Shown here piece by piece: positions 1 through 55,308 of a stretch of 64,000 nt of DNA; the first letter of the stretch is position 1; each line of letters starts with the position of its first letter. Source of the DNA: Candidatus Sulfomarinibacteraceae bacterium (GTDB lineage Bacteria; Acidobacteriota; Thermoanaerobaculia; Thermoanaerobaculales; Sulfomarinibacteraceae); NCBI GenBank assembly GCA_963776765.1, contig CAVZOK010000009.1, positions 60,750 through 124,749 of the forward strand, read 5' to 3'. The position numbers were made by a program, and so were the translations under genes. The notes under the pieces are model-generated. The model saw only the letters and a list, made by a program, of their open reading frames with translations. It made no database searches and was not told the DNA's origin.

Positions 1-253
1 CAGTGGTGGCCTGGACGATGTAGATGTCGCGTTCGAGTTCGCGGGCGGCGGCACAGGCGAGGGTCGTCTTGCCAACCCCTGGCTTGCCGAGAAGGCGGGG
101 GTTGAGCGGTGCGTCGTCCTCCGCGAAGAGCGACCACGCCGCAAGCAATTGCAGCAGCACCTCGCGCTGGCCGATCCAGGGCGGGATCTCTTGCACTGGC
201 CGCGCCAGGTGGAGCTCGATGCCGTCGATTTCGATGACCGGGTTCAGACTCAC
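1..253 (-). CDS. AAA+ ATPase (MoxR/CbbQ-like), N-terminal 84 codons; continues past window start
   Basis: Minus-strand frame is open to position 1 and absent from the ORF track because it has no stop in the window. GTG start at 253. Translation VSLNPVIEIDG...LLGKPGVGKTTLACAAARELERDIYIVQATT carries a Walker A P-loop (GKPGVGKT). Confidence 0.7.
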   Translation of the reverse strand, partial: MSLNPVIEIDGIELHLARPVQEIPPWIGQREVLLQLLAAWSLFAEDDAPLNPRLLGKPGVGKTTLACAAARELERDIYIVQATT

Positions 254-421: not shown

Positions 422-440
422 GCATCCAGCATCCAGCATC
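422..440. repeat. Heptamer tandem array (GCATCCA x2.7) at left edge of four-helix-bundle cassette copy 1
   Basis: gcatccagcatccagcatc read directly. The same unit recurs at 1406-1419 just right of the cassette. Confidence 0.85.
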
Positions 441-442
441 AC

Positions 443-556
443 TGCTGTCCAAAACAAATCCACAGGTGACGTTGCCCATCTGATAACACAAGGGTTACGG
501 GTCGGTTTTCGGCCTTTCCAAGGCGAGGTTCCCTTCAACCAACTGATGCTGTCCAA
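443..556. repeat. 104-bp segment present only in cassette copy 1, bounded by the 10-bp direct repeat TGCTGTCCAA
   Basis: TGCTGTCCAA occurs at 443-452 and 547-556. Copy 2 has a single TGCTGTCCAA (36356-36365) and lacks the intervening sequence. Confidence 0.8.
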
Positions 557-784
557 GGCGCGGGCGACCGCGACAGGTAACAGCGGCAGTATTCAGCGGC
601 AGCGACAGAAAGCAGCGTCAGGAAACAGCGCAGCCATCAGCGACCGCGTCGGGGGCAGCACAACGCCGAGCCGCGGAGCGGCGACAGATGGATAGCCCGG
701 GGTGTCAACCCCGGATCTGGCTTCAGATTTCCCGTGACGCCAGCATGATCACCTCCGGGTCGTTCAACGGGCGAGATAGCTGCC

Positions 785-855
785 GAGTCGGCCGGTGTCA
801 AGGGCGGGCCGGCCCGGGGCCGGTTGCTTTGCAACCCTTGACACTGGCCGACTCG
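785..855 (+). other. Long leader hairpin (20-21 bp stem, 30-nt GC-rich loop) just upstream of the four-helix-bundle RBS
   Basis: 5' arm cgagtcggccggtgtcaaggg (785-804) pairs with cccttgacactggccgactcg (835-855). The one G.U pair in copy 1 (G794/T845) is G-C in copy 2. Confidence 0.6.
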
Positions 856-893
856 CCAGCTTTGGGGAAGGCATGAACGACCCGGAGGTGACC

Positions 894-1247
894 ATGTCCA
901 ACGCCGCCACGAAGCCAAACCTCATTGCCCATACGAAAGCCCTCGAAGCAGCAGGAATCGCGATCAAGCTGGTGATGAGGGTTCCCGCTCCTCTGAAGCC
1001 GATTGCCGATCAGGTGATCCGGTCGGCAAGCTCGGTTCCAGCTAACCTCGCAGAAGGGCACGGCCGCGTCGGAAGGGACCGGTCGAACCACTGGAGAATC
1101 GCCTACGCCTCGGCCAAAGAGGTCGACAGCCACTTGAAGCTCCTCGCGCACGCCGGGGCGATCAGTCAGACAGCCGCCCGTGACGTCATGAAGGCCTTCG
1201 ATCAGGTCCGTGCCATGACCTGGCGATTGCTCAACCCAAGGTCATGA
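894..1247 (+). CDS. Four-helix-bundle protein (23S rRNA intervening-sequence protein / Avd family, PF05635-like), 117 aa
   Basis: ATG at 894 is preceded by GGAGGTG (884-890). The sequence has family-typical IRSASSVPANLAEGHGR ... EVDSHLKLL helices. The ORF-track start at 795 lies inside the leader hairpin and is unlikely. Confidence 0.85.
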   Translation: MSNAATKPNLIAHTKALEAAGIAIKLVMRVPAPLKPIADQVIRSASSVPANLAEGHGRVGRDRSNHWRIAYASAKEVDSHLKLLAHAGAISQTAARDVMKAFDQVRAMTWRLLNPRS

Positions 1248-1442
1248 TTTCAGTTATATATCCCAGTCAGACTGGATGCTGTCGCTGCCGCCGCCTCTGA
1301 TCGCTGACGCTGATTGCTGTCGCTGGTGGCTGCCACTGCACCTGCCGCTGCAATGCCTCGCCAGTCAAATCTGAGTCGGCTTCCCGAGACGCTGTCTTGG
1401 ACAAGAATCCAGCATCCAGTGAGCACGGGGGTTCCCGATTCA

Positions 1443-4338: not shown

Positions 4339-4375
4339 CTGGTGGGCGGCAAATCCGAAATCCGAAATCCGAAAT
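4339..4375 (+). repeat. Box+tail element: CTGGTGGGCGG + (AAATCCG)x3.7
   Basis: Read directly. The box is identical to the one 47 nt downstream. Confidence 0.9.
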
Positions 4376-4385
4376 AGAAAGGGGG

Positions 4386-4430
4386 CTGGTGGGCGGAATT
4401 CCTAATTCCTCATTCCTAATTCCTCATTCA
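4386..4430 (+). repeat. Box+tail element: CTGGTGGGCGG + (AATTCCT/CATTCCT)x4.5
   Basis: Read directly. The last unit contains the fahA stop codon (4428-4430). Confidence 0.9.
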
Positions 4431-14562: not shown

Positions 14563-14606
14563 GGGTGGGTGGCAAATCCGAAATCCGAAATCCGAAATCC
14601 GAAATT
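14563..14606 (+). repeat. Box+tail element: GGGTGGGTGG + (AAATCCG)x4.7
   Basis: Read directly. Confidence 0.9.
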
Positions 14607-14610
14607 CCGC

Positions 14611-14655
14611 GGGGTGGATGGAATTCCGAATTCCGAATTCCGAATTCAGAATTCG
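14611..14655 (+). repeat. Box+tail element: GGGGTGGATGG + (AATTCCG)x4.5
   Basis: Read directly. It ends 19 nt before the HAD start codon. Confidence 0.9.
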
Positions 14656-15447: not shown

Positions 15448-17297
15448 AGGTCGAGGAGCTGCGGCGACGGTTTTCGGACCACGTCGTCGTCGGTGACGGC
15501 GGCACGGGATCGGAGCTCCTGCAGCGCCTTCCCGAAGGATCGCGCCTGGACGTTGCTGCGCACGAGCATCCTGAGGAGGTGCTCGCTATTCACCTGGCAT
15601 ATATCGAGGCGGGTGCCGAGCTCATCGAAACCGCTACGTTCGGCAGTTCGCGTCCTCGCATGGTCCGGGGCAGGGTCGGCAACCTCACCGAAAAGGTCAA
15701 TGCCGCGGCCGTCAAGCTGGCCCGCGAGGCGCGCGAGATCTCGGGCCGCGACGTGCTGGTCGCGGGGTCGATCGCGCCACTTGCCGGGGTCCTCGATCTC
15801 GACGAACCCGAAGGTCGAGCCATGATTCCGACCGCCCATGCGGAACAGGCAGCGATTTTGGCGGGTCGAGGTGCCGATCTTCTCATCCTCGAGACGTTCT
15901 TCCGGGTAGATGAAATGGCGATCGCGGTGGCGGCGGCACGCAGCGTCACCGATCTTCCGATGATCGGCATGATGACCTTCGCCCACGAACGGCCTCCCCA
16001 CCCCTATGTGGAGCAGGCGGAAATGGTCGACGAACTGGCTGAGCTCGATCTGGTGGCGATAGGTGTCAATTGCGCCCCGGGGCCGATGGGGGCGATCGAG
16101 ATTCTCCGCCACCTGAGCCAGGACAGGTTGCCGTTGGCGACGTCACCCAACGCCGGGATGATGGTCCAGCGGGAAGGCCGCATCCTGATGCCTCCGGCAA
16201 CCCCCAGCTACCTGGCGCAGTTCGCCCGCCAGGCGGTTGGCCTGGGTGCGGCTCTGATCGGTGGTTGCTGCGGCACCGGGACCGAACACATCCGCGCCAT
16301 CGCCGAGGCTGTTCGTGAGCTCAAGCCAGAGCTGCGCTCCGGGACATCCGTGGTGGTGCCGGAGAGCCCGCCGGCGCCGGAGCCAGTGAAACCCTCTTCC
16401 TCGCTCGCGACCAAACTCGAGCGTGGCCGTTTCGTGCGCCTGATACAGCTCGACCCGCCAAAGGGGACCAATGTCGAGGCGATCCTGGATGCCGCGACGG
16501 CAATCGCCGCTCATCCCGATGTCGATGCGGTCGATATCAACTCCAACCCCCTCGCACGCCTGCGAATGGACCCGCTCTTCCTCGGTCAACTGATTCAGCA
16601 ACGAACGGGCCTCGAGGCGGTGCCACACATCACGCCACGGGACGCGAGTTTGATGGGTCTACAGTCGCAACTCCTCGGCGCCTGGACCGGCGGGATCCGC
16701 AATGTTCTTGCGATCACCGGAGACCCCTCGCAACTCGGCGATCTTCCCGGTGTACACGATGTGTATCACGTGGACATATTCGAACTCGTGCGGGCGTTGT
16801 CGAGGATGTCCGAGGGTTTCGACTGCGCCGGCAATCGGATTGGTGATCCCCCCGGTTTCCTGATTGGTGTCGCAGCCAACCCTGCGGCGGACAACTTGCG
16901 GAAGGAAGCGGATCGCCTCCAGCGCAAGGCCGATAACGGCGCCCATTTCGCGATGAGCCAGGTGTGTTTCGACTGGGAGCTGTGGCAGAGATTCACCGAC
17001 TATTGTGGTGGCGAGCTTCCGATCCCGATGTTGGCCGCTGTGTGGCCGCTGCGGTCGTTCAAAATGGCGTTGCGATTGCACCATGAGGTGCCGGGCATCA
17101 TCGTGCCCGAGGATCTGCTCGCGTCGCTCGAAGCGGCAGGGGCCGGCGCCGCCGAGGTCGGGTACGAGCGCGCGGTACAAATGCTCCAGCAGGCCCCCGA
17201 ACATGCCGCCGGGGTCTACCTGATCGCGCCCTTCAAGCAGCCTCAGGCGATTCTTCCACTGATCGACGACGCACAGCAGAAGAGGAATGAGGAATGA
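15444..17297 (+). CDS. Bifunctional homocysteine S-methyltransferase / 5,10-methylenetetrahydrofolate reductase (YitJ-like)
   Basis: N-terminal Hcy-binding domain (GDGGTGSEL...IGGCCGTG) joined to a C-terminal MTHFR-like domain (HITPRD...LAITGDP...VAANP). The last codons and the stop lie inside a heptamer array. Confidence 0.85.
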   Translation: MKVEELRRRFSDHVVVGDGGTGSELLQRLPEGSRLDVAAHEHPEEVLAIHLAYIEAGAELIETATFGSSRPRMVRGRVGNLTEKVNAAAVKLAREAREISGRDVLVAGSIAPLAGVLDLDEPEGRAMIPTAHAEQAAILAGRGADLLILETFFRVDEMAIAVAAARSVTDLPMIGMMTFAHERPPHPYVEQAEMVDELAELDLVAIGVNCAPGPMGAIEILRHLSQDRLPLATSPNAGMMVQREGRILMPPATPSYLAQFARQAVGLGAALIGGCCGTGTEHIRAIAEAVRELKPELRSGTSVVVPESPPAPEPVKPSSSLATKLERGRFVRLIQLDPPKGTNVEAILDAATAIAAHPDVDAVDINSNPLARLRMDPLFLGQLIQQRTGLEAVPHITPRDASLMGLQSQLLGAWTGGIRNVLAITGDPSQLGDLPGVHDVYHVDIFELVRALSRMSEGFDCAGNRIGDPPGFLIGVAANPAADNLRKEADRLQRKADNGAHFAMSQVCFDWELWQRFTDYCGGELPIPMLAAVWPLRSFKMALRLHHEVPGIIVPEDLLASLEAAGAGAAEVGYERAVQMLQQAPEHAAGVYLIAPFKQPQAILPLIDDAQQKRNEE

Positions 17298-17317
17298 GAA
17301 ATGAGGAATTGCCACCC
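17283..17317 (-). repeat. Box+tail element (reverse orientation): (AGGAATG-type)x4 + GCCACCC
   Basis: aggaatgaggaatgagaaatgaggaattgccaccc overlaps codons for ...RNEE and the TGA (17295-17297) of the preceding gene. Confidence 0.9.
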
Positions 17318-17324
17318 TGTTTCA

Positions 17325-17344
17325 ATTTCGGATTTCGGATTTGC
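17325..17344 (-). repeat. Heptamer array (CGGATTT x2.5), homologous to reverse complement of 4350-4375
   Basis: atttcggatttcggatttgc is followed by agtcgg, as in the reverse complement of the 4331-4375 element, but the box is missing. Confidence 0.8.
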
Positions 17345-17441
17345 AGTCGGCCTCCGGCCGACGCGTCGCACCGTCGCCTGCGGGCGGCTCATGGCCTCCT
17401 CCTTCAGATGAGGCCTGATCCGCCTCAGCAGCCGCCGGCGG

Positions 17442-17469
17442 GTTCGGATTTCGGATTTCCCACCCACCC
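17442..17469 (-). repeat. Box+tail element (reverse orientation): (CGGATTT)x2.5 + CCCACCCACCC
   Basis: Read directly. Confidence 0.85.
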
Positions 17470-21214: not shown

Positions 21215-21263
21215 ATAATTAGGAGTTAGGAATGAGGAATTAGGAATTCCCATCCAACGCCCC
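21215..21263 (-). repeat. Box+tail element (reverse orientation): (TTAGGAA/TGAGGAA)x4.5 + CCCATCCAACGCCCC
   Basis: Starts 3 nt after the metH stop codon. Confidence 0.9.
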
Positions 21264-21283
21264 AGGGATCTCAACTTCATGCC

Positions 21284-21330
21284 GGGAGGGTGGGCGGCAT
21301 TCCTAATTCCTCATTCCTAATTCCTCATTC
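21284..21330 (+). repeat. Box+tail element: GGGAGGGTGGGCGG + (CATTCCT/AATTCCT)x4.7; inverted partner of 21215-21263
   Basis: The two tails are mutually complementary, giving a potential ~30-bp stem between metH and the REC-lpxC gene. Confidence 0.9.
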
Positions 21331-26206: not shown

Positions 26207-26269
26207 TATCGAGCATCGAGCATCGAGCATCTAGCATCGAGTATCTAGCATTTAGTATTGAGTATCGAG
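26207..26269. repeat. Longest heptamer array: 9 units of (C/T)AT(C/T)(G/T)AG
   Basis: tatcgag catcgag catcgag catctag catcgag tatctag catttag tattgag tatcgag. A GGCCACCCC box sits at 26162-26170. The array ends 4 nt before the stop at 26274. Confidence 0.92.
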
Positions 26270-26273
26270 CTGC

Positions 26274-27935: not shown

Positions 27936-27982
27936 GGGAGGTTGGCGGAAATTCCTAATTCCTAATTCCTAATTCCGAATTT
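27936..27982 (+). repeat. Box+tail element: GGGAGGTTGGCGG + (AATTCCT)x4.5
   Basis: The tail ends at the rubrerythrin stop codon (27983-27985). Confidence 0.9.
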
Positions 27983-33116: not shown

Positions 33117-33237
33117 CCCGCAGATGACGCAGATCGCGCAGATAAGGACCCGGACATTTTGTGATGGTATCTGCGTTAATCTGCGTTATCTGCGGGTAAG
33201 AAAAATGGCCTTTCAGTTGGACTCGTGTTCCACTTGC
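33117..33237 (+). repeat. Palindromic 9-mer-armed element, copy a (CGCAGAT-type arms + conserved 40-nt tail)
   Basis: Arms are 33117-33144 and 33168-33196, followed by the tail taagaaaaatggcctttcagttggactcgtgttccacttgc. It is homologous to 34162-34282. Confidence 0.85.
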
Positions 33238-33312: not shown

Positions 33313-34119
33313 TTGACGCCCGGGGGGCAGGTGAAGATCAGGATTCGTCAGGTTGTGAAATGGTGTTTGGTGGCGTTCGCGGTTGTGGTTGCGCTCTTCG
33401 CCCTCTACCTTTCGGTGTTCTTTTTCCCATATCCGTTGTTTCCGCATCACATGGAGCACGCAGGTTTCAGCGTTTACTCCGATGGAGATATCCCTGGGAA
33501 CTTCGATCTCGTTCTCGAAGACGCCAGGCTCCGGCTGGAAAGGATGGAGTTGTACCGCGGCGCGGCGCCCCCACGCATTTTCATGTGTCAATCACAGCGA
33601 CTCTTCGTCTTTCTTGTCAAGTTGGCCGGCAAGCGCCACGTTGGCCAGGGCTTGCTGATCTCGGTGGCCGGCAATGCCTTTTTCTCCAAAAAGATGATCG
33701 AGACCGTGGGGCGACGGAACAAGGGCCTTCCGCTGCACTCGAGGATGCACGGGTCGTGGGCGGCCGCGATATCTCACGAGGCCGCACATCAGCTCGTCTT
33801 TTCTGAAGTCGGATTGAAAGTGGCTCGCAGGATGCCGGTTTGGAAATCGGAGGGCTATGCGGATTACTCGGCCAATTTTGCGGCCACCGCGGCGGATCCC
33901 GACTACGACTTGCGAAATCGTATTGGATTTCTCCTCGACGACGATTCCTGGAACTCAACCGCGGGGTACGTTGATCGTCGCCACTTCCGATGGCACGTAT
34001 TGGTGGAGTTCCTATGTTCTGTCGAGGGTCTGACCTTCGAGGATCTTATGGATGGAGGCGTCACCGAAGAGGGCGCTGAAACCGCGATGATGTCGTGGTA
34101 TTCGTCTCCCGATTCTTGA
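33313..34119 (+). CDS. Membrane-anchored MA-clan (gluzincin-like) putative metallopeptidase
   Basis: N-terminal TM segment. HEAAH followed 20 residues later by WKSEGYA, which resembles the M1 HExxH...WLNEGFA pattern. Start is uncertain (TTG 33313 or GTG 33331). Confidence 0.6.
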   Translation: MTPGGQVKIRIRQVVKWCLVAFAVVVALFALYLSVFFFPYPLFPHHMEHAGFSVYSDGDIPGNFDLVLEDARLRLERMELYRGAAPPRIFMCQSQRLFVFLVKLAGKRHVGQGLLISVAGNAFFSKKMIETVGRRNKGLPLHSRMHGSWAAAISHEAAHQLVFSEVGLKVARRMPVWKSEGYADYSANFAATAADPDYDLRNRIGFLLDDDSWNSTAGYVDRRHFRWHVLVEFLCSVEGLTFEDLMDGGVTEEGAETAMMSWYSSPDS

Positions 34120-34156
34120 TACTCGATTCTCGATCCTCGATTCGCCCGCCCATACC
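34111..34156 (-). repeat. Box+tail element (reverse orientation): (GATNCTC heptamers)x4.5 + CCCGCCCATACC
   Basis: The array overlaps the last three codons and the TGA (34117-34119) of 33313..34119. Confidence 0.85.
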
Positions 34157-34161
34157 AGTTT

Positions 34162-34282
34162 GCCCGCAGATCACGCAGATCACGCAGATGAAGCCTAGGA
34201 CATTTTGAGATGTCATCTGCGTCAATCTGCGTATTCTACGGGAAGAAATAGGCCGTTTCGATTGGACTCGTATCCCACTGGC
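34162..34282 (+). repeat. Palindromic 9-mer-armed element, copy b
   Basis: Arms are 34162-34190 and 34215-34242. The shared centre ggacattttgNgatg and the tail aagaaataggccgtttcgattggactcgtatcccactggc match copy a. Confidence 0.85.
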
Positions 34283-34324: not shown

Positions 34325-34547
34325 GAGCCGCGGAGCGGCGAAAGATACATAGCCTGGGGCGTGAGCCCCAGGACACGGATGAGGAAAAGAGAGGAAGCCG
34401 CGGAGCGGCGACAGATATATCGCGGTGATACCTGCTGTTCACGCCACAAAGAAATCTGTCGCCCCATTCAGGGGCTTATCTTCTTTTGCCCTGTTCACCC
34501 TGGGGCTCACGCCCCAGGCTCAGAACCTGTCACGCCTCCGGCGCTTC
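34325..34547. repeat. Cluster of four ~48-nt units (GCCGCGGAGCGGCGACAGAT...CCTGGGG-N5-CCCCAGG), two forward then two reverse
   Basis: Units at 34325-34373, 34395-34425 (half), 34451-34477 (half, reverse) and 34496-34547 (reverse). The same unit occurs at 668-717 and 36469-36518 inside the four-helix-bundle cassettes. Confidence 0.85.
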
Positions 34548-36323: not shown

Positions 36324-36351
36324 GCCGCCCACCAGGATTCAGGATTCAGGG
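36324..36351 (-). repeat. Box+tail: GCCGCCCACCAG + (GATTCAG)x2.3, immediately after the ydbT-like stop and left of cassette copy 2
   Basis: Read directly. The box is the reverse complement of CTGGTGGGCGG seen at 4339 and 4386. Confidence 0.85.
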
Positions 36352-36355
36352 TCAC

Positions 36356-37206
36356 TGCTGTCCAAGGCGCGGGCGACCGCGACAGGTAACAGCGGCAGTA
36401 TCTGACAGAAAGCAGCGTCAGGAAACAGCGCCAGCCATCAGCGACCGCGTCGGGGGCAGCACAACGCCGAGCCGCGGAGCGGCGACAGATGGATAGCCCG
36501 GGGTGTCAACCCCGGATCTGGCGTCAGTTTCCCGTGACGCCGGCATGATCACCTCCGGGTCGTTCAACGGGCGAGATAGCTGCCGAGTCGGCCGGTGTCA
36601 AGGGCGGGCCGGCCCGGGGCCGGTTGCTTTGCAACCCTTGACACCGGCCGACTCGCCAGCTTTGGGGAAGGCATGAACGACCCGGAGGTGACCATGTCCA
36701 ACGCTGCCACGAACCCAAACCTCATTGCCCATACGAAAGCCCTCGAAGCAGCAGGAATCGCAGTCAAGCTGGTGATGAGGGTTCCCGCTCCTCTGAAGCC
36801 GATTGCCGACCAGGTGATCCGGTCGGCAAGCTCGGTTCCAGCTAACCTCGCAGAAGGGCACGGCCGGGTCGGACGGGACCGGTCGAACCACTGGAGAATC
36901 GCCTACGCTTCGGCCAAAGAGGTCGACAGCCACTTGAAGCTCCTCGCGCACGCCGGGGCGATCAGTCAGACTGCCGCCCGTGACGTCATGAAGGCCTTCG
37001 ATCAGGTCCGTGCCATGACCTGGCGATTGCTCAACCCGAGGTCATGATTTCAGTTATATATCCCAGTCAGACTGGACGCTGTCGCTGCCGCGGCCTCTGA
37101 TCGCTGACGCTGATTGCTGTAGCTGGTGGCTGCCACTGCACCTGCCACTGCAATGCCTCCGCCAGTCAAATCTGAGTCAGCTTCCCGAGACGCTGTCTTG
37201 GACAAG
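36356..37206 (+). repeat. Repeated cassette copy 2 (~851 bp)
   Basis: See 547..1405. It is flanked on the right by (ATCCTGC)x3.4 at 37211-37234. Confidence 0.9.
36694..37047 (+). CDS. Four-helix-bundle protein (23S rRNA IVS / Avd family), copy 2
   Basis: Differs from copy 1 at 10 nucleotides: 8 synonymous, 2 conservative (K to N, I to V). Confidence 0.85.
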   Translation: MSNAATNPNLIAHTKALEAAGIAVKLVMRVPAPLKPIADQVIRSASSVPANLAEGHGRVGRDRSNHWRIAYASAKEVDSHLKLLAHAGAISQTAARDVMKAFDQVRAMTWRLLNPRS

Positions 37207-37268
37207 GGTGATCCTGCATCCTGCATCCTGCATCTTGCGTCGGAGTGTCTTGGAATTCAGCTGCTACC

Positions 37269-41198: not shown

Positions 41199-41317
41199 GC
41201 TATACGGCAGTACGGCTATACGGGTGGACGGCTATTTGGCCCACGCTTTTTGCAACGCGGACGCCAAGCGGAATCCTTTCGCTGTATAGCCGCATAGCCG
41301 CATAGCCGCATAGCCGT
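41199..41317. repeat. Palindromic element with 8-mer-built arms (CTATACGG / CATAGCCG)
   Basis: Arms are 41199-41235 and 41282-41317, about one mismatch per unit, with a 46-nt centre. Confidence 0.9.
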
Positions 41318-42792: not shown

Positions 42793-43688
42793 CAACGGCT
42801 GAATCACAGAGGCACAGAGGACACAGAGAGAGCACAGAGCCATCACCCACCCCAAGAGCCCACAGATCACCCAGATAGACCCAGAACCGCTCGCCCACCC
42901 AGGAGAACCACCAAGGCACCAAGACACCAAGGAAAAAGAAAAGGCAAAACGCTGCACCGCTATCCCGGACAAGACTGCCCACAGATCACACAGATAGACC
43001 CAGATTCAGTCACTCATCCCAACAAACCGCGAAGAACGCAAAGCCCGCAAAGAAGCGGACGCTGAGCCTGAAAGGCGGTCGAGCATATTGACGGCAGAAC
43101 GACAGGCGATCGGATCGCCTGTCACCGGTGTAAAGCCGGCCACCTCCGAAAGCGGGCTTTCCTCGATGTCCGACTTCACACCGGCCGACGTGCTCGAAGC
43201 ACGTCGGTTCTACCTCGGCCCGAATCTCCCCCAACCATCAAATAGGAAGAGATGTGGCGAGACCTGCGCTCTTCGAGAGCGCAGGTCACTGGGCCGGAAG
43301 ACCGGCACGAGAGCTCGCTTTCGAAACGGTTTTCCGGCCCAGTGACCCCGAGTCCGTCGTTTGACGGCCACGAGGTTTCGCCGAAAGACGTCAAAAGACA
43401 CATGCCTCCGTTAGACATTCGGGACCTCGCCGCATGAAGAAATTCAGAAAACCTCTCTCTGCGTCTCCGCGACTCTGCGTCTCTGCGTTAAGGGGTGCGT
43501 GTGCGGATCTGGGTCTATCTGGGTGATCTGTGGGAATTATCAGATCGCTGGAATGCTCGGGGCCGAAGGTAGATACGGTGATTCGATCCAACCGGTAAAC
43601 TCCATCTGCGTCTATCTGCGAGATCTGCGGTTTTTCGGGTGGAATGCCAAGCTCTGTGTTCTCTGTGCCTCTGTGGTTCTTCGAGCGT
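42793..43688. repeat. ~900-bp gene-free region: nested inverted arrays of short tandem repeats around a hairpin-dense ~380-nt core
   Basis: (CACAGAG)n at 42805-42841 pairs with 43649-43679. GCCCACAGATCACCCAGATAGACCCAGA at 42858-42888 pairs with 43506-43533. Further arrays lie at 42908-42932, 42977-43009, 43021-43058, 43453-43490 and 43604-43630. Confidence 0.9.
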
Positions 43689-44867: not shown

Positions 44868-46678
44868 CGTCTCTCCTGTGATTCCGATACCGCCCTTGGC
44901 CCCTCGGCATAGCCGCTGCGCCGCGGATCACCAACGCCGGAATAAACCCCGGTCGCAGGATCGTAGAGGACCGCGTTGACGCCGCCAAAAAAAGCCAGGT
45001 CGCCAGACGGCACCGGTGGAAATTCGAGTCGGAATATGTGGTCGAATCCGTAAGTCTGAAGTTCATCCGCATCCTTCCTGGTGATCGGGTCTGTGATTTC
45101 TATGCAGATCCGAGACGGGTCACTGGCGCTGTTCCACAGCACCCGAGGAGCGACCACGGCATCCCGAATTGCCATGCCACGGTCGATGACGTTGCTGATG
45201 ACATCGACCACTGAGGGCGGGATACGGTCGGAGCCTGCACTTCCCAATACCATGATTTCTCCATCTCGACGGACGATGGTCGGGGCCATGGTCGTCGCGT
45301 AACGCGCACGGGGCTGTAAATAGTGGGGACTGTCTGGGTGTTCAAAGTCGAAGAACTCGAGACAGCTGTTGTATGGAAAGCCCAGACCGGGAGTCGCGAC
45401 TTTGGCACCATACTGGCGGCACAGTGTCTGGCTCAACGCTACCGCGTTGCCTTCTCGATCCACTACGGAAACGTGGGTCGTGTGCTCACCCATTTTTGGA
45501 GTTGGCCCACCTGGGCCAAGAACCTCCTCGGGGATTGCGCTGCCGGGTGTGATCAGCGATGCACGTTCAAGGGCGTGTTTTTCGGACAGATAGTCGTTGA
45601 CTCCCATCGGATATCGTGCCGTGTTGTGAGCGAACTGGTTGGAGTCGGAATGCGCGATCCGGAAAGCCTCGATCATCACGTGCAGACGACTCACCGAGTC
45701 TGCGCCGAGAAAGTCCCGCGAGAAAGTCTGGAGGATATTGAGCGTCTCGGCGACCTCACCGCCACCCCCGGGCCAGGGGAAGGAAATGATTTCTGCGTTC
45801 CGGTATTTCGAATGCAACGGCTGAAGTTCTCGTTCTCGGGCGTGCGCGAGATCGACCGGCTGGATGTAGCCTCCTCGATTGAGAAGGTCGTGCGACATCG
45901 TGCGCGCTATTCCTCCACGGTAGAACGAGGCCGGACCTTCCTGGGCTAACCGCCGATAAACTGCCGCGAGATCCGGGCGGCAGATGACTTCGCCTACCGA
46001 TCCGGGGAGACGGCCTCCGTCGAGGAGGACGAATCGAAGGTAGCGGGATGTGAGGATCTCGTCGAGATAAGCCGTGGTCCAGGCAATGGTGTTGGCGCTG
46101 AGCTGAAACCCCTGCTCCGCGATCTCGATCGATGGCTGCAACACATCCCCGAGGCTCATCGTGCCGTAGCGCTCGAGAGCGTGGTTCAGGGCGGCCAGTG
46201 TCAATGGCACGGCTACCGCTTTGGCGCCCATATGTTCTCCGGAATTTCGGAGCTGGAGGAGCGTGGCGGCGTCGGCGGCAAGCGGCACGACCACCGACCC
46301 GTCGATCGCGATCGCACGACCATTCACAGGCGAAATCAGGATGTAGGTCATCCCGCCGAGCCCGGATCCGCCGGGGTCGGAGACTCCAAGAGCAAACGCG
46401 GCGGCAACTGCCGCGTCAACTGCGTTGCCACCCAATTCGAGGATCTGGATCGCGGCACGTGTCGCCTCCGTCGAACCCGTTGACACCATGCCGTGGTCGG
46501 ATTGCGCTTCCGGCGCATAGAGGGATGGAGGCGGGGAGCTTCGAGATACGCGGTCATGATGAGCGCACCCGTCGGCCGCAACCGCGGCCACAATCATCGC
46601 TGCGCATTCGAGCAGGCGGAGCCTGACGGTATGCCGGGAGTTCTCTACGCTCTTGATGCTGGGCGATTCAGGTTTCAT
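44864..46678 (-). CDS. ggt: Gamma-glutamyltransferase paralogue 1
   Basis: GGNAVDAAVAAAFALGV..PGGSGLGG. Catalytic Thr context GEHTTHVSVVDREGNAVALSQTL. Confidence 0.9.
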   Translation of the reverse strand: MKPESPSIKSVENSRHTVRLRLLECAAMIVAAVAADGCAHHDRVSRSSPPPSLYAPEAQSDHGMVSTGSTEATRAAIQILELGGNAVDAAVAAAFALGVSDPGGSGLGGMTYILISPVNGRAIAIDGSVVVPLAADAATLLQLRNSGEHMGAKAVAVPLTLAALNHALERYGTMSLGDVLQPSIEIAEQGFQLSANTIAWTTAYLDEILTSRYLRFVLLDGGRLPGSVGEVICRPDLAAVYRRLAQEGPASFYRGGIARTMSHDLLNRGGYIQPVDLAHARERELQPLHSKYRNAEIISFPWPGGGGEVAETLNILQTFSRDFLGADSVSRLHVMIEAFRIAHSDSNQFAHNTARYPMGVNDYLSEKHALERASLITPGSAIPEEVLGPGGPTPKMGEHTTHVSVVDREGNAVALSQTLCRQYGAKVATPGLGFPYNSCLEFFDFEHPDSPHYLQPRARYATTMAPTIVRRDGEIMVLGSAGSDRIPPSVVDVISNVIDRGMAIRDAVVAPRVLWNSASDPSRICIEITDPITRKDADELQTYGFDHIFRLEFPPVPSGDLAFFGGVNAVLYDPATGVYSGVGDPRRSGYAEGPRAVSESQERR

Positions 46679-46709
46679 GACGGCGCTATTGTTCCATAGC
46701 GGCGGCAGG

Positions 46710-48485
46710 CTATTGCGATTCAGCCACTACCCGCGCGCCCCGCGCAGAACCCCATCGTCGTCCGTCCCCGACGCCGACGAAGGTCATTTCCTGGGTGTCC
46801 CAGCCGACGGCGTTCACACCGCCGAAGTACACGGCACAGGCCGTGACCTGTGGATAGTGGAGTCGTTCGACTGGGATGTGGCCGACGGCTTCGAGAACAT
46901 TCACATCGGAGTCGGTGATCGGCGAGGTCACCTCGATATAGGGCGCGAGGGCTTTGACGCCGCCAAAAAGCACTCGCGGCGCGGTAACCGCCTTCACGAG
47001 CCCCATCCTACGATCGACAAGGTTGCTGACGACGTTGACGATGATCGAGGGTATGAGATCACTCCCGGGTGTGCCGAGAGCTGCCAGGAGGGAGCCGTCC
47101 TTAGCCAACACGATGGTTGGTGCCGTATCGGTCGCGCAGGGGATGAGCGGCTGCAAATATCCGGGGCATTGCGGTTTGTCGAAGTTGAAGCTCTCGAGCA
47201 GGCTGTTATAGGGAAAACCGAGGCCCGGAGTTGCGACCTTTGCACCCCAGGAGCGGCCGAGAGTCTGGGTGAGCGACACCACATTGCCCCACCGATCGGC
47301 GACTGAGATCTGGGTCGTACTGTCCCCGGCCGGCGCGCAGGCATGGTTTGCCGGTCCGTAAAGATCGGAATCGGCAATCACCTTGCCGGGAATGATGAGG
47401 CCGGCACGTTGACATGCGTGCTCCTTGCTGAGGACAGGAGCGGGTTTCTTCCTCAACGGACCGCCAACGCTCGACACCAGCCCGCGGTCTGCGAGCGCGA
47501 TGCGGAAAGTCTCGATGTGGGTATGGTATCGGGCGACTGTGTCCCCGGCCAAGAGTCCTCTCGGAAAAGTCTCGAGGATATTGAGGGCCTCGATAATGGC
47601 GGTCCCACCTGCCGGTGGAGGAACAGTGAAGACGTGAGTACCACGGTAGGTTGTGTGAAGGGGGCGCACCTCTCTGACACGGTACCTGGCGAGATCGGCC
47701 TTGCGAAGGAAACCGCCGTTCTGGATCATGTCGTCTTCGATCTCATCGGCAATACTGCCACGATAAAAGACCTCGACTCCGTCACGCGCAATGCGTCTCA
47801 GGGTCAGGGCCAGGTCGGAGCGGCAGACGCTTTCTCCCGGTTGTCCGGCACTGTAGCCGTCCTTGAAGGCGATTCCGCGCAGGGAATTTGACGCGAGGAG
47901 TTCTTCCCGGTAGTAATCAGACCACACAATCTGCACGGGGTTGAGTCGATAACCGCTCTCTGCAACCTCGATTGCGGGCGCGATGAGGGCTGCCATCTCC
48001 ATGGTTCCGAATCGCGCGCGCGCGCGGTCGAGAACAGCGAGTGTGGTGGGCACTGCCACCAGGCCATGGCCGACGAGCGTACCGGCCTCTTTGAGTTGGC
48101 GCAGCCGTGCGGGATTCACGTTGAGAGGCGTCGGAGAGGTGCCGTCGAGAACGATGGTTTGGTTTGTGGCAAGGTGGATGACCATCAGAGTCATGCCGCC
48201 AAGGCCTGAGGCGTCCGGGTCTGCGACGGTCAACGTCAGCGCTGCGGCGACCGCAGCATCGATGGCGTTTCCGCCGCTCTCGAGGATTTCGACCGCGGCG
48301 TCGGTGGCCTCTGCTGATCCGGTGGCGACGATCCCGAAGTCCGACCGGGCGTGGGTGGTTCTCGGCTCGGTCGGAAGAACAACCTCCTGGCAAGGAACTT
48401 CCGCAACAACAACTCCGACAACGGAAACTGCGATTGCGAGTACAAACCACAGAGTCGCCTCGACACCACCTTTGGTGTCACTCAC
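46710..48485 (-). CDS. ggt: Gamma-glutamyltransferase paralogue 2
   Basis: GGNAIDAAVAAALTLTV. GDSTTQISVADRWGNVVSLTQTL. The GTG start overlaps the end of paralogue 3 by 8 nt. Confidence 0.9.
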   Translation of the reverse strand: MSDTKGGVEATLWFVLAIAVSVVGVVVAEVPCQEVVLPTEPRTTHARSDFGIVATGSAEATDAAVEILESGGNAIDAAVAAALTLTVADPDASGLGGMTLMVIHLATNQTIVLDGTSPTPLNVNPARLRQLKEAGTLVGHGLVAVPTTLAVLDRARARFGTMEMAALIAPAIEVAESGYRLNPVQIVWSDYYREELLASNSLRGIAFKDGYSAGQPGESVCRSDLALTLRRIARDGVEVFYRGSIADEIEDDMIQNGGFLRKADLARYRVREVRPLHTTYRGTHVFTVPPPAGGTAIIEALNILETFPRGLLAGDTVARYHTHIETFRIALADRGLVSSVGGPLRKKPAPVLSKEHACQRAGLIIPGKVIADSDLYGPANHACAPAGDSTTQISVADRWGNVVSLTQTLGRSWGAKVATPGLGFPYNSLLESFNFDKPQCPGYLQPLIPCATDTAPTIVLAKDGSLLAALGTPGSDLIPSIIVNVVSNLVDRRMGLVKAVTAPRVLFGGVKALAPYIEVTSPITDSDVNVLEAVGHIPVERLHYPQVTACAVYFGGVNAVGWDTQEMTFVGVGDGRRWGSARGARVVAESQ

Positions 48486-50226
48486 GGACCGCTACCACCC
48501 TGGGTCCCATCGCTGAACCCCAGCGCCGCGGATCGCCGATACCGGTGAATTCTCCGGTCTCGGGATCGTAGCCAATTGCGTTGACGCCACCGAACTTGGT
48601 CACTGAGGTGTCTTCAGGTGCGTCCGGTGGCGGGTACCGCAGGACGGTCATGTTCTCGAAGCCCATTTTTTGGAGGGCCAAAACGTCCTCCTCGGAGATC
48701 GGGTCGACAACCTCAATATGAGCCCTCTTCCACGACATGCCGCCCCACACGACGCGAGGTGCGGTGACGGCGTCGCGTACGCTCATCCCCCGGTCCACCA
48801 TATTGCTGACAACGTCGGCGACGAGTCCGGGGATTCGGTTGCTGCCCGGAGTGCCGAGTGCGGCGAAAAACACTCCATCCTTGAGGACGATTGTGGGCGC
48901 GATATCGGTTGAACACGGGCGATTGGGCTGAAGGTAGCCTGGGCACTGCGGTTTGTCGACATTGAAGGATTCGAGGAAGCTGTTATACGGAAAACCAAGG
49001 CCCAGCGTGGCGACCTTTGCACCAAAAGATCGGCTGAGGGTCTGGGTCATCGAAACGACGTTGCCCTGGCTGTCAGCGACCGAAACATGGGTGGTGCTCT
49101 CCCCAGGAGTTTGGCAGTCGGGATTGGCAGGGGAGGTCAATATTTCTTGCGGAATCGCTTTGCCTGGAAGGATGAGGGTGGCCCGATCCCTTGCGTGTGC
49201 CTTGCTCAGAGGATCGGAGCCAGGGCTCCTTTGCCGATTGCCGGCCTTTTGAGCATCCGCGGCGGCGATCCGAAATGTGTCGAGGAAGACATGGTGCCGT
49301 TCAGCCGAGTCCTCGGCAAGAAAATCACTCGGATAGGTTTCGAGGAGATTGAGGCCCACCACGAGACCGGCGCCGCCGCTTGGTGGAGGCAGAGTGTAGA
49401 CATCGAAGCCGCGATATGACGTGTGAAGTGGATTGACCTCGCGGGGGCGCACCCGCATGAGATCGATCTTGCGTACAAATCCTCCGTTGCGGATCATGTC
49501 GGCCTCGATATCATCGGCGATGCTGCCACGGTAGAAACTCTGCACACCCTCGGAGGCGATCCGTCGAAGGGTGCTGGCGAGGTCCGGTTGACAATGACGA
49601 TCCCCTGGGCTGCCAACCGTGCGACCGTCTTCCATTGCAATGAGAGACACGTAATGCGATGAATTTATGATGTTCTCGTAGTAACGGTGGGTCCATTTGA
49701 TCTGAATTCTACTGAGCGGGTAGCCCTGCTCGGCGAACTCAATGGCGGGCTGCAGGAGGGCCGCCATCTCCATGGTTCCGTAGCGTGCTCTCGCATGTTC
49801 GAGGGTCGCCAACGTTGTTGGCGTGGCGACGGCCTCGTAACCGTAGGTTCGGCCGCTTTCCTTGAATCTCCTGAACTTGTTGATGTCTATCGCAATCGGT
49901 GATTGAGAGGTCCCATCAATAGCAAGCGTTCGACCGTCCGCGAGATGGATGACCATGCTCGTCGTTCCACCGATTCCTGATGCATCCGAATCCACAACGC
50001 TCAGAGTCAGGGCGGCCGCGACCGCCGCGTCGATGGCATTTCCGCCATTCTCGAGGATCTTGATTGCGGTCTCTGTGGCTTCGTTTGATCCGGTTGCGAC
50101 CATGCCAAAGTCTGACCGTGCTTCGGGTACGCAGAGTTCTGGGGGCAGGCGATCGTCATGACAGGGGGAGGCGCCTGAGAGCACACCAACCACCAACATC
50201 GCTGCTGTGGCGATGGTCAACCGCAT
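48478..50226 (-). CDS. ggt: Gamma-glutamyltransferase paralogue 3
   Basis: GGNAIDAAVAAALTLSV. GESTTHVSVADSQGNVVSMTQTL. ATG at 50226 gives the signal peptide MRLTIATAAMLVVGVLSGASPC. The ORF is open to GTG 50262. Confidence 0.9.
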   Translation of the reverse strand: MRLTIATAAMLVVGVLSGASPCHDDRLPPELCVPEARSDFGMVATGSNEATETAIKILENGGNAIDAAVAAALTLSVVDSDASGIGGTTSMVIHLADGRTLAIDGTSQSPIAIDINKFRRFKESGRTYGYEAVATPTTLATLEHARARYGTMEMAALLQPAIEFAEQGYPLSRIQIKWTHRYYENIINSSHYVSLIAMEDGRTVGSPGDRHCQPDLASTLRRIASEGVQSFYRGSIADDIEADMIRNGGFVRKIDLMRVRPREVNPLHTSYRGFDVYTLPPPSGGAGLVVGLNLLETYPSDFLAEDSAERHHVFLDTFRIAAADAQKAGNRQRSPGSDPLSKAHARDRATLILPGKAIPQEILTSPANPDCQTPGESTTHVSVADSQGNVVSMTQTLSRSFGAKVATLGLGFPYNSFLESFNVDKPQCPGYLQPNRPCSTDIAPTIVLKDGVFFAALGTPGSNRIPGLVADVVSNMVDRGMSVRDAVTAPRVVWGGMSWKRAHIEVVDPISEEDVLALQKMGFENMTVLRYPPPDAPEDTSVTKFGGVNAIGYDPETGEFTGIGDPRRWGSAMGPRVVAVRE

Positions 50227-55205: not shown

Positions 55206-55308
55206 GGATGCTCGATACTTGATACTCGATACTCGATAAAAGCCAGGCTTGTTTTTGAGGGTGGGTTGGGGATCGAAAATCGAGAATCGAGAATCGAGAA
55301 TCGGATGC
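55206..55308. repeat. Palindromic heptamer-armed element with internal GAGGGTGGGTTGGGG box, between the two RND cistrons
   Basis: The left arm (GATACTC-type, 55206-55237) faces the right arm (ATCGAGA-type, 55272-55308), with about one mismatch per unit. Confidence 0.9.

Follow-up and report, generated by a model that had tools for sequence, protein, structure and literature searches.

A four-helix-bundle gene cassette repeated in Candidatus Sulfomarinibacteraceae, a probable non-autonomous derivative of IS4-family insertion sequences

The window considered here is a 64,000-nucleotide stretch of Candidatus Sulfomarinibacteraceae DNA (Acidobacteriota; contig CAVZOK010000009.1 of assembly GCA_963776765.1, positions 60,750 to 124,749 of the forward strand). 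It harbors two copies of a cassette of 860-970 bp, each built around a single intact open reading frame (ORF) for a 117-residue protein of the PF05635 four-helix-bundle family. Element A extends from 440 to 1406 and element B from 36353 to 37210. An initial annotation, made from the sequence letters alone, had recognized the pair but set the start of copy A at 547; the true start, at 440, includes a 107-bp 5′ module that is present in copy A and in its relatives at the fetched loci L001, L005 and L058, and is deleted from copy B. Aligned globally, the two copies (860 vs. 855 nt) are 97.5% identical, with 21 substitutions and, rather than the three small indels first reported, 5 indel events (15 gap columns). 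The differences are spread over the leader (5/337), the ORF (10/354) and the trailer (6/159), and a recount agrees that 8 of the 10 changes in the ORF are synonymous, the other two being K7N and I24V. Similarity stops abruptly at the terminal inverted repeats (TIRs) and the neighboring genes differ. Because the flanks are unrelated, the pair is not a segmental duplication, the outcome that the annotation had named as fatal to its proposal.

The relationships of the cassette are read from its ends. Alignment of the junctions of Sulfomarinibacteraceae copies gives constant termini, CACTGCTGTCCAAAACA...TGTCTTGGACAAGAGTG, that form an imperfect TIR of ~17 bp; inverted termini had been noted before, but they are longer than TGTCCAAG alone. 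Copy A lies between perfect copies (9/9) of a target-site duplication (TSD), ATCCAGCAT. A search across genomes with the end motif locates it in more than 114 stretches from many phyla, frequently at the ends of contigs; among them are four complete elements of 1,344-1,396 bp in which the motif, CACTSYTGTCCAARACA, is inverted at both ends (L109 1-1376, L121 3792-5135, L124 6512-7907, L125 574-1946). The single ORF of these elements encodes a DUF4372+DDE_Tnp_1 protein recognized by the IS4 family transposase equivalog NF033592 (E = 1e-77), and in tblastn this transposase adjoins the end motif in ~20 loci from several phyla. Autonomous insertion sequence (IS) copies are flanked by 9-bp TSDs of their own (GATTTATGT in L121, ACCTATAAT in L125), and the complete copies hold a third, internal copy of the end motif. 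In size (1344-1396 bp), ends (CACTGCTGT) and 9-bp direct repeat, the parent elements fit the IS4Sa subgroup, whose members measure 1150-1750 bp, with CA------T ends, direct repeats of 8-10 bp and a DDE transposase with YREK (Table 1 of PMC2266710). Other Acidobacteriota (L171, L175) also have the parent type, as does a further bin (L124) of the sample that yielded the metagenome-assembled genome (MAG) CAWCLO01. Since the cassette shares its termini and 9-bp duplications with complete IS4-family elements in other phyla, it is probably a non-autonomous IS4-family derivative, of the mobile insertion cassette (MIC) or MITE (miniature inverted-repeat transposable element) kind. The earlier proposal, of a mobile module that has no transposase and depends on a mobilizing function from outside, is thereby borne out by IS4-family TIRs, 9-bp TSDs, unrelated insertion contexts and cassette-free orthologous gaps.

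The insertion sites point in the same direction. Among 23 related cassettes with both ends recognizable, 6 have a perfect TSD and 11 match in at least 8 of 9 positions, against 11% in cross-locus controls, and the preferred target, ATSCWGSAT, is nearly palindromic. Period-7 arrays adjoin ten of the 23 insertions but only 0.6% of background positions, and this enrichment marks heptamer arrays as insertion hot spots. Arrays of the ATSCWGSAT type act as such hot spots for the cassette. Two other interpretations of the ends were dropped: a duplication of 7 bp, which would have made the heptamer arrays accumulated transposon footprints (the autonomous ISs show CAC...GTG ends and 9-bp duplications), and a likeness to Tc1/IS630 termini (no TA is duplicated, and the transposase belongs to the IS4 type). 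The arrays are simply rich in the 9-bp target. ORF-less derivatives with the same TIR and TSD also occur, at 456 bp with only the last ORF codons kept (L026, L060) and at 254 bp (L001), and are ordinary MITE-type derivatives.

Heptamer arrays adjoin both window copies, and dozens of arrays of 7-, 8- and 9-mers fill the intergenic gaps of the window. The annotation had placed the cassettes within such arrays; the arrays do abut both copies but are intergenic repeats found genome-wide, serving as preferred targets and lying outside the cassette. Both copies sit between protein-coding genes, and an Rfam scan of the window finds no rRNA, in agreement with the annotation. The gaps had also been described as convergent, which is true of copy B only; to the left of copy A a gene for a MoxR-like ATPase (1-253, minus strand, GTG start at 253) is oriented away from the element.

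Relatives of the cassette gene, located in a back-translated scan that took one genome for each species, occupy at least 324 loci in MAGs of Acidobacteriota (Thermoanaerobaculia/'Holophagae'). Of the best 80 loci, 46 belong to the single MAG CAWCLO01 (Ca. Sulfomarinibacteraceae), where they lie in unrelated contexts, and 15, 10 and 5 to three 'Holophagae'-labelled MAGs; 71 of these 80 fetched copies are intact. The protein database holds more than 4,000 relatives, many of them on contigs shorter than 2 kb, as expected of an assembly-breaking repeat, and a protein identical to that of the window is found at another locus, on the metagenome contig L001. In MAGs of Ca. Sulfomarinibacter and Thermoanaerobaculia the genes on either side of copy B have orthologues of 76-79% identity. 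At L085 and L087, though only in species ~77% identical at the flanking protein, the gap between these orthologues measures 64-140 bp and contains no cassette; the annotation had called for empty sites in related genomes. Exact-protein look-ups of the flanking genes, aimed at strain-level empty sites, returned no record, and viral contigs hold no close relatives. The genome closest to the window cassette (L005/L058, CALOEL010000007.1; 98% protein identity) carries the database label 'uncultured Alphaproteobacteria', probably in error, since the cassettes it contains are like those of Thermoanaerobaculia-type Acidobacteriota.

Both ORFs exceed the curated cut-offs of the hidden Markov models (HMMs) PF05635 (55.9 vs. 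33.8 bits) and TIGR02436 (58.8 vs. 24), which confirms the family membership first proposed. An AlphaFold2 (AF2) model built with 36 relatives has the expected four helices (8-27, 35-56, 60-86 and 92-113) at a predicted local distance difference test score (pLDDT) of 93.5. In Foldseek the best match is Xcc0516 (2GSC; E = 7e-6, template-modelling (TM) scores 0.81/0.85, 27-28% identity), which is also the only match in a sequence search of solved structures; BT_0352 (2RLD) reaches TM 0.82. Avd, from a Bordetella phage diversity-generating retroelement (DGR), matches at TM 0.77-0.86 with 6-8% identity (4DWL, 0.78/0.85; 8UB7). The motif of the PF05635 family, (G)xxRxxxSxxxNxxE (PMC3936711), is represented by R43, S47, N51 and E54, with Q40 at the position of the glycine; among the 36 relatives S47, N51 and E54 are invariant and R43 is kept in at least 90%. 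The protein is strongly basic and contains no recognizable catalytic domain by the PF05635/TIGR02436 HMMs or among the Foldseek matches. The purifying selection that the annotation had read from two copies extends over the family, with a pairwise ratio of non-synonymous to synonymous change (dN/dS) of 0.13. Parsimony on a neighbor-joining tree gives 0.14 for terminal branches (473 synonymous, 197 non-synonymous changes) and 0.12 for internal ones. A value of ~0.9 from a crude count of singletons was rejected in favor of the tree-based 0.14, as it is biased by homoplasy at synonymous sites. The basic charge, the Avd-like fold and the conservation at the level of the element together make the binding of structured nucleic acid from the element itself the most plausible activity of the protein.

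The non-coding part of the cassette is organized around two complementary arms and a hairpin that takes up the ribosome-binding site. The predicted minimum-free-energy fold of the whole cassette is one long stem in which leader pairs with trailer (z = -9.8), and the duplex energy of the two arms is -128 kcal/mol, compared with -89 for shuffled trailers. RNAalifold analysis of 71 copies shows an outer stem, pairing the Shine-Dalgarno (SD) sequence with an anti-SD sequence, that is practically invariant on both strands, and an inner helix with compensatory double changes at 7 pairs (one pair, for instance, is G-C in 49 copies but A-U in 19). The SD sequence GGAGG ends 4 nt 5′ of the ATG. Divergence of the leader between A and B (1.5%) is lower than that at synonymous sites (dS 0.098). 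A conserved TTGACA in the 3′ strand of the hairpin is a possible internal start signal, for which no -10 element was found. In two relatives (L001 2499-2658, L005 2353-2480) the inner part of the hairpin, window positions 762-876, is replaced by unrelated sequence and the outer stem is retained, which indicates that the loop tolerates or attracts insertions. Within the leaders of both window copies, on the minus strand, the Rfam covariance model Acido-Lenti-1 scores 37.2 bits, a borderline value against the threshold of 37. The CAWCLO01 copies are without this unit, which is thus a secondary insertion in the window subfamily. Elsewhere in the window two inverted Acido-Lenti-1 units (46.9 bits at 34326-34372, minus strand; 33 bits, plus strand) end a palindromic, ORF-less element of ~220 bp (34326-34545), and another unit lies downstream of the cassette of L014. 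With the solo units of both cassettes, these show the Acido-Lenti-1 'sRNA' motif acting here as the end of a small dispersed repeat would.

The same core is found between a different inverted repeat, GGTTCATCCGGGAAAGCGTG...CACGGAATTCCGGATGAGCC (TIR2, as distinct from the IS4-type TIR1), in the 'Holophagae' MAGs and in CAVTEP01. The 73 TIR2 pairs comprise ~46 cassettes of 800-900 bp and ~26 ORF-less elements of 300-700 bp. Their duplication is of 8 bp only, perfect in 16/73 and with at least 7 of 8 matches in 37/73 (0.7% and 6.4% in controls), at a target resembling RAACGTTY. The larger TIR2 pairs examined offer no candidate partner: L308 encloses an unrelated IS3-type transposase, L282 a degraded four-helix-bundle ORF and L290 unannotated ORFs. 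Matches of the TIR2 motif, GGYTCATCCGGRAWWNCGTG, outside Acidobacteriota were set aside as chance, since they lie in coding sequence (VHPExR) and their number is near the ~70 expected; an affiliation of TIR2 with ISL3 is unsupported. IS4-type cassettes may keep a decayed remnant of TIR2 ~60 nt inside their left end, although the similarity is weak. The occurrence of one cargo between two sets of ends, with 9-bp and 8-bp duplications, implies that the cargo was repeatedly captured or that it favors the spread of its carrier.

Several observations weigh against the view of the cassette as a mobile IS4-family derivative with a functional RNA-protein cargo. Copy B has no clean TSD (5/9) and the right end of copy A has lost its last three bases (GTG), so the two may have lost their mobility, or recombination may have given rise to B. 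No IS4-type transposase is encoded in the window, as the annotation had stated, nor, by tblastn, in the ~2.2 Mb of fetched loci, ~0.9 Mb of which is of host lineage; none of the best 120 transposase homologues lies on contigs of the host MAGs. With none in the searched host-lineage sequence, a partner within the same genome can only be presumed. The 80 loci analyzed are the best tblastn matches and are hence biased to intact ORFs. A cassette subfamily of CAWDGW01 (L077, L079, L082-L084, at ~2470-2500 in each) has lost the ATG and acquired an in-frame stop (...GGDQS*AVTN...), with the rest of the ORF intact; it has nevertheless multiplied to at least 5 copies, from which it follows that the protein is not needed in cis, and the ORF-less derivatives lead to the same conclusion. 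As for the arms, cognate pairs (-128 kcal/mol) pair no better than non-cognate ones (-127), that is, there is no copy-specific covariation. Their complementarity therefore stems from repeat composition and not from position-by-position co-evolution, and arm pairing could be a by-product of that composition. The minus strand folds as well as the plus strand, so folding does not separate RNA from DNA structure, and scans for sigma-70-type promoters and intrinsic terminators gave nothing above chance.

Other readings of the same data must be weighed beside that of a non-autonomous IS4 derivative. Two similar copies within 64 kb might suggest an ordinary pair of paralogous genes, or a piece of a segmental duplication, a view that is scarcely credible given the TSD of copy A, the hundreds of copies elsewhere and the limits of similarity at the TIRs between unrelated genes. 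It is also very improbable that the genes are Avd subunits of DGRs, or remnants of such elements. Shared membership of PF05635 and a fold that matches both Avd and the DGR ribonucleoprotein speak for that origin, but the stand-alone proteins 2GSC and 2RLD are much closer than Avd in sequence, no template/variable repeat pair lies near either copy, and neither cassette encodes a reverse transcriptase (RT), although neighboring ORFs were not scanned for one. The lack of close relatives in viral contigs and the transposon ends that bound the copies are likewise hard to reconcile with a DGR.

The remaining alternatives concern what is being selected. The transposon could be a vehicle only, carrying a protein that benefits the host in RNA metabolism, stress response or defense, with copy number reflecting selection for dosage. 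Low dN/dS even on terminal branches, the invariance of the translational control element and the recurrence of PF05635 genes in CRISPR-cas loci would all suit such a benefit. Selection at the level of the host, however, would hardly maintain dozens of near-redundant copies individually, the start-codon-less subfamily and the ORF-less derivatives spread equally well, and related species are without the cassette at the orthologous site, so that this explanation is unlikely. Alternatively, the cargo module itself could be the primary selfish entity, spreading by RNA- or recombination-mediated insertion, routes also suspected for rRNA intervening sequences, with the IS ends as a secondary, second route. 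Such an entity would account for the same core in two unrelated TIR/TSD frameworks, for purifying selection on the ORF in dozens of copies and for the scatter of PF05635 genes, with no known transposase, over many sites of insertion in rRNA and over cas loci. Yet all of the well-preserved copies examined stop precisely at TIR1 or TIR2 and have a TSD of matching length, no cassette copy without either TIR was identified, the ORF-less derivatives move as well and the protein has no recognizable catalytic domain; we regard an autonomous cargo of this kind as quite improbable.

If the cassette is taken as an IS4-family element whose transposase gene is absent and whose ends enclose a cargo module, a mechanism can be outlined. 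Movement would be by cut-and-paste, through a DUF4372+DDE_Tnp_1 transposase supplied in trans, as established knowledge of IS4-family DDE transposases suggests. Sequence comparison shows that it has transposed many times, with duplication of 9 bp of the preferred ATSCWGSAT target, which the heptamer arrays offer repeatedly. The predicted structures, and the parallel with rRNA intervening sequences, suggest that read-through transcripts, or transcripts of the cassette's own, may fold into the arm stem. As long as the hairpin holds, the ribosome-binding site would be paired and translation off; processing of the double-stranded parts by RNase III, or transcription that starts inside the hairpin, could free it. 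The protein would then bind nucleic acid, most plausibly the structured RNA or DNA of its own element. More speculatively, and with considerable doubt, the protein might be an accessory factor at the level of the element that, like Avd in the DGR ribonucleoprotein, binds the long-stem RNA or DNA of its own element and so raises mobilization or retention, and cassettes landing in the tips of rRNA helices, where RNase III can harmlessly excise the stem, might be the progenitors of ORF-bearing intervening sequences. Such a role, if true, would explain purifying selection in dozens of copies as well as the riding of one cargo on two unrelated transposon frameworks.

Table 1. Coordinates of the two cassette copies and their parts in the 64,000-nucleotide window
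Feature	Position	Strand	Basis
Left copy of 9-bp TSD ATCCAGCAT, copy A	431..439	.	Read directly; identical to 1407-1415
Left TIR CACTGCTGTCCAAAACA, copy A	440..456	+	Same 17-mer bounds IS4-family elements L109, L121, L124, L125
5′ sub-terminal module, 107 bp, copy A; direct repeat TGCTGTCCAA at 443-452 and 548-557	451..557	+	A/B alignment; absent from B
Leader arm, copy A; CAGCGNN-type repeats of 6-7 nt, complementary to trailer	558..743	+	Fold z-score, duplex energy
Solo Acido-Lenti-1 (RF01687) unit inside leader, copy A	669..715	-	Rfam, 37.2 bits vs. gathering threshold 37
Central hairpin, copy A	744..893	+	RNAalifold, 71 copies
Hairpin outer stem, copy A: CACCTCCGGGTCGTTC (anti-SD) pairs with GAACGACCCGGAGGTG (SD GGAGG at 885-889)	750-765 with 875-890	+	
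Hairpin inner stem, copy A: near-perfect helix, ~26 bp			
117-aa four-helix-bundle gene (PF05635/TIGR02436), copy A; isoelectric point 10.95	894..1247	+	HMM, AF2, Foldseek
Trailer arm, copy A; NNCGCTG-type repeats, complementary to leader	1248..1392	+	Fold, duplex energy
Right TIR TGTCTTGGACAAGA, copy A; terminal GTG of family consensus TGTCTTGGACAAGAGTG gone	1393..1406	-	Junction alignment
Right copy of 9-bp TSD ATCCAGCAT, copy A	1407..1415	.	Read directly
Left TIR CACTGCTGTCCAA, copy B; joined straight to leader through the 107-bp deletion	36353..36365	+	
Leader arm, copy B; Acido-Lenti-1 unit inside at 36470-36516 (minus)	36366..36543	+	
Central SD-sequestering hairpin, copy B	36544..36693	+	
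117-aa PF05635 gene, copy B	36694..37047	+	
Trailer arm, copy B	37048..37193	+	
Right TIR TGTCTTGGACAAGGGTG, copy B	37194..37210	-	
Flanking 9-mers, copy B: ATTCAGGGT and ATCCTGCAT, 5/9 match, no clean TSD	36344-36352 and 37211-37219		

Beyond the cassette, the window is rich in other repeats. Tandem arrays of 7-, 8- or 9-nt units, often in inverted pairs able to form hairpins, occur in its intergenic gaps throughout, for example at 4351-4429, 14574-14654, 17282-17459, 21217-21330, 26208-26270, 27950-27981, 33119-33194, 34110-34189, 41199-41316 and 55207-55303; several are preceded by GGTGGGCGG (CCGCCCACC at 36326-36334). One 9-mer array motif, CGCAGATCA (GTTTGCCCGCAGATCACGCAGATCACGCAGAT), is present with its inverted partner at 34155-34189 and 33119-33194 of the window and again on the unrelated metagenome contig L001 (1979-2013), and is a further dispersed repeat family. 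An inverted-repeat element at 42858-43534 has arms of 42-43 nt that are 84-90% complementary and separated by 471-592 nt; a third copy, in direct orientation, lies at 42977-43034. Within 45273-49131 a 245-nt segment is present in three diverged copies (60-71% identity), spaced at ~1.8 kb, which are presumably tandem paralogous genes.

Compared with the IS4-family elements that encode DUF4372+DDE_Tnp_1 transposases (NF033592; IS4Sa-like), the cassette has the same or nearly the same 17-nt TIR, the same 9-bp TSD and, like them, an extra internal copy of the end motif, but it lacks the transposase and its interior is unrelated. Classical bacterial MITEs such as the Correia elements of Neisseria are non-autonomous TIR elements of 100-160 bp, intergenic and non-coding, that form long hairpins when transcribed. 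The cassette differs from them in its length of 860-970 bp and in carrying an ORF under selection, whose translation has a control hairpin of its own. A further parallel is found in the Bacillus cereus group (sensu lato), where MICs such as MIC231, and elements of the IS231 subgroup of IS4 that carry passengers, likewise place IS4-family TIRs around cargo other than a transposase (PMC2266710). MICs are mobilized in trans and produce a target duplication of the length typical of the IS4 family; passenger DNA is known in the IS231 subgroup and none is noted in other IS4 subgroups, IS4Sa included (PMC2266710). In contrast, the ends of the cassette fit IS4Sa and not IS231, its cargo, a PF05635 gene set in a long RNA-like module that is self-complementary, also occurs in a second TIR framework, and it reaches at least 46 copies per genome, whereas MICs are present in a few. 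The cassette belongs to the MITE/MIC class by every feature tested except a cognate IS in the same genome. As a practical matter, the cassette family is a repeat that fragments assemblies of Thermoanaerobaculia genomes.

With respect to the cargo, PF05635 genes are known in rRNA intervening sequences (IVSs), in cas loci and as Avd of DGRs, and outside DGRs they are called functionally uncharacterized. Within the literature searched, no report describes an IS-bounded, highly amplified cassette whose cargo is a PF05635 gene. Avd (Protein Data Bank entries 4DWL and 8UB7) resembles the cassette protein in being a small, basic four-helix bundle, but the low identity already mentioned, the absence of RT from the cassettes and of template/variable repeats nearby set the two apart, and the cassette is not a DGR component. 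The natural ORF-less and start-less variants provide built-in controls, and mobilization by an IS4 transposase, assistance of movement by the protein and processing of the stem by RNase III can all be tested now. The closest architectural parallel is offered by the ORF-containing IVSs of 23S rRNA in Coxiella burnetii and Leptospira, in which complementary termini pair into a long stem whose loop contains a PF05635 ('S23p') ORF, as is predicted for the cassette. The terminal stems of IVSs are cut by RNase III around this ORF (PMC4990558). ORF-bearing IVSs are regarded as selfish and horizontally moved, and the transposon origin proposed for them in 1990-1993 is still a hypothesis (PMC4990558). 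Unlike an IVS, which is inserted in helix 25 or 45 of 23S rRNA and excised by RNase III, the cassette lies outside rRNA and carries the ends and target duplications of a DDE transposon; it is built like an rRNA intervening sequence but is not one. By joining a PF05635 gene and an IVS-like stem to explicit DDE-transposon ends and target duplications, the family supplies what was missing for the question, dating from ~1990, of whether IVSs descend from transposons.

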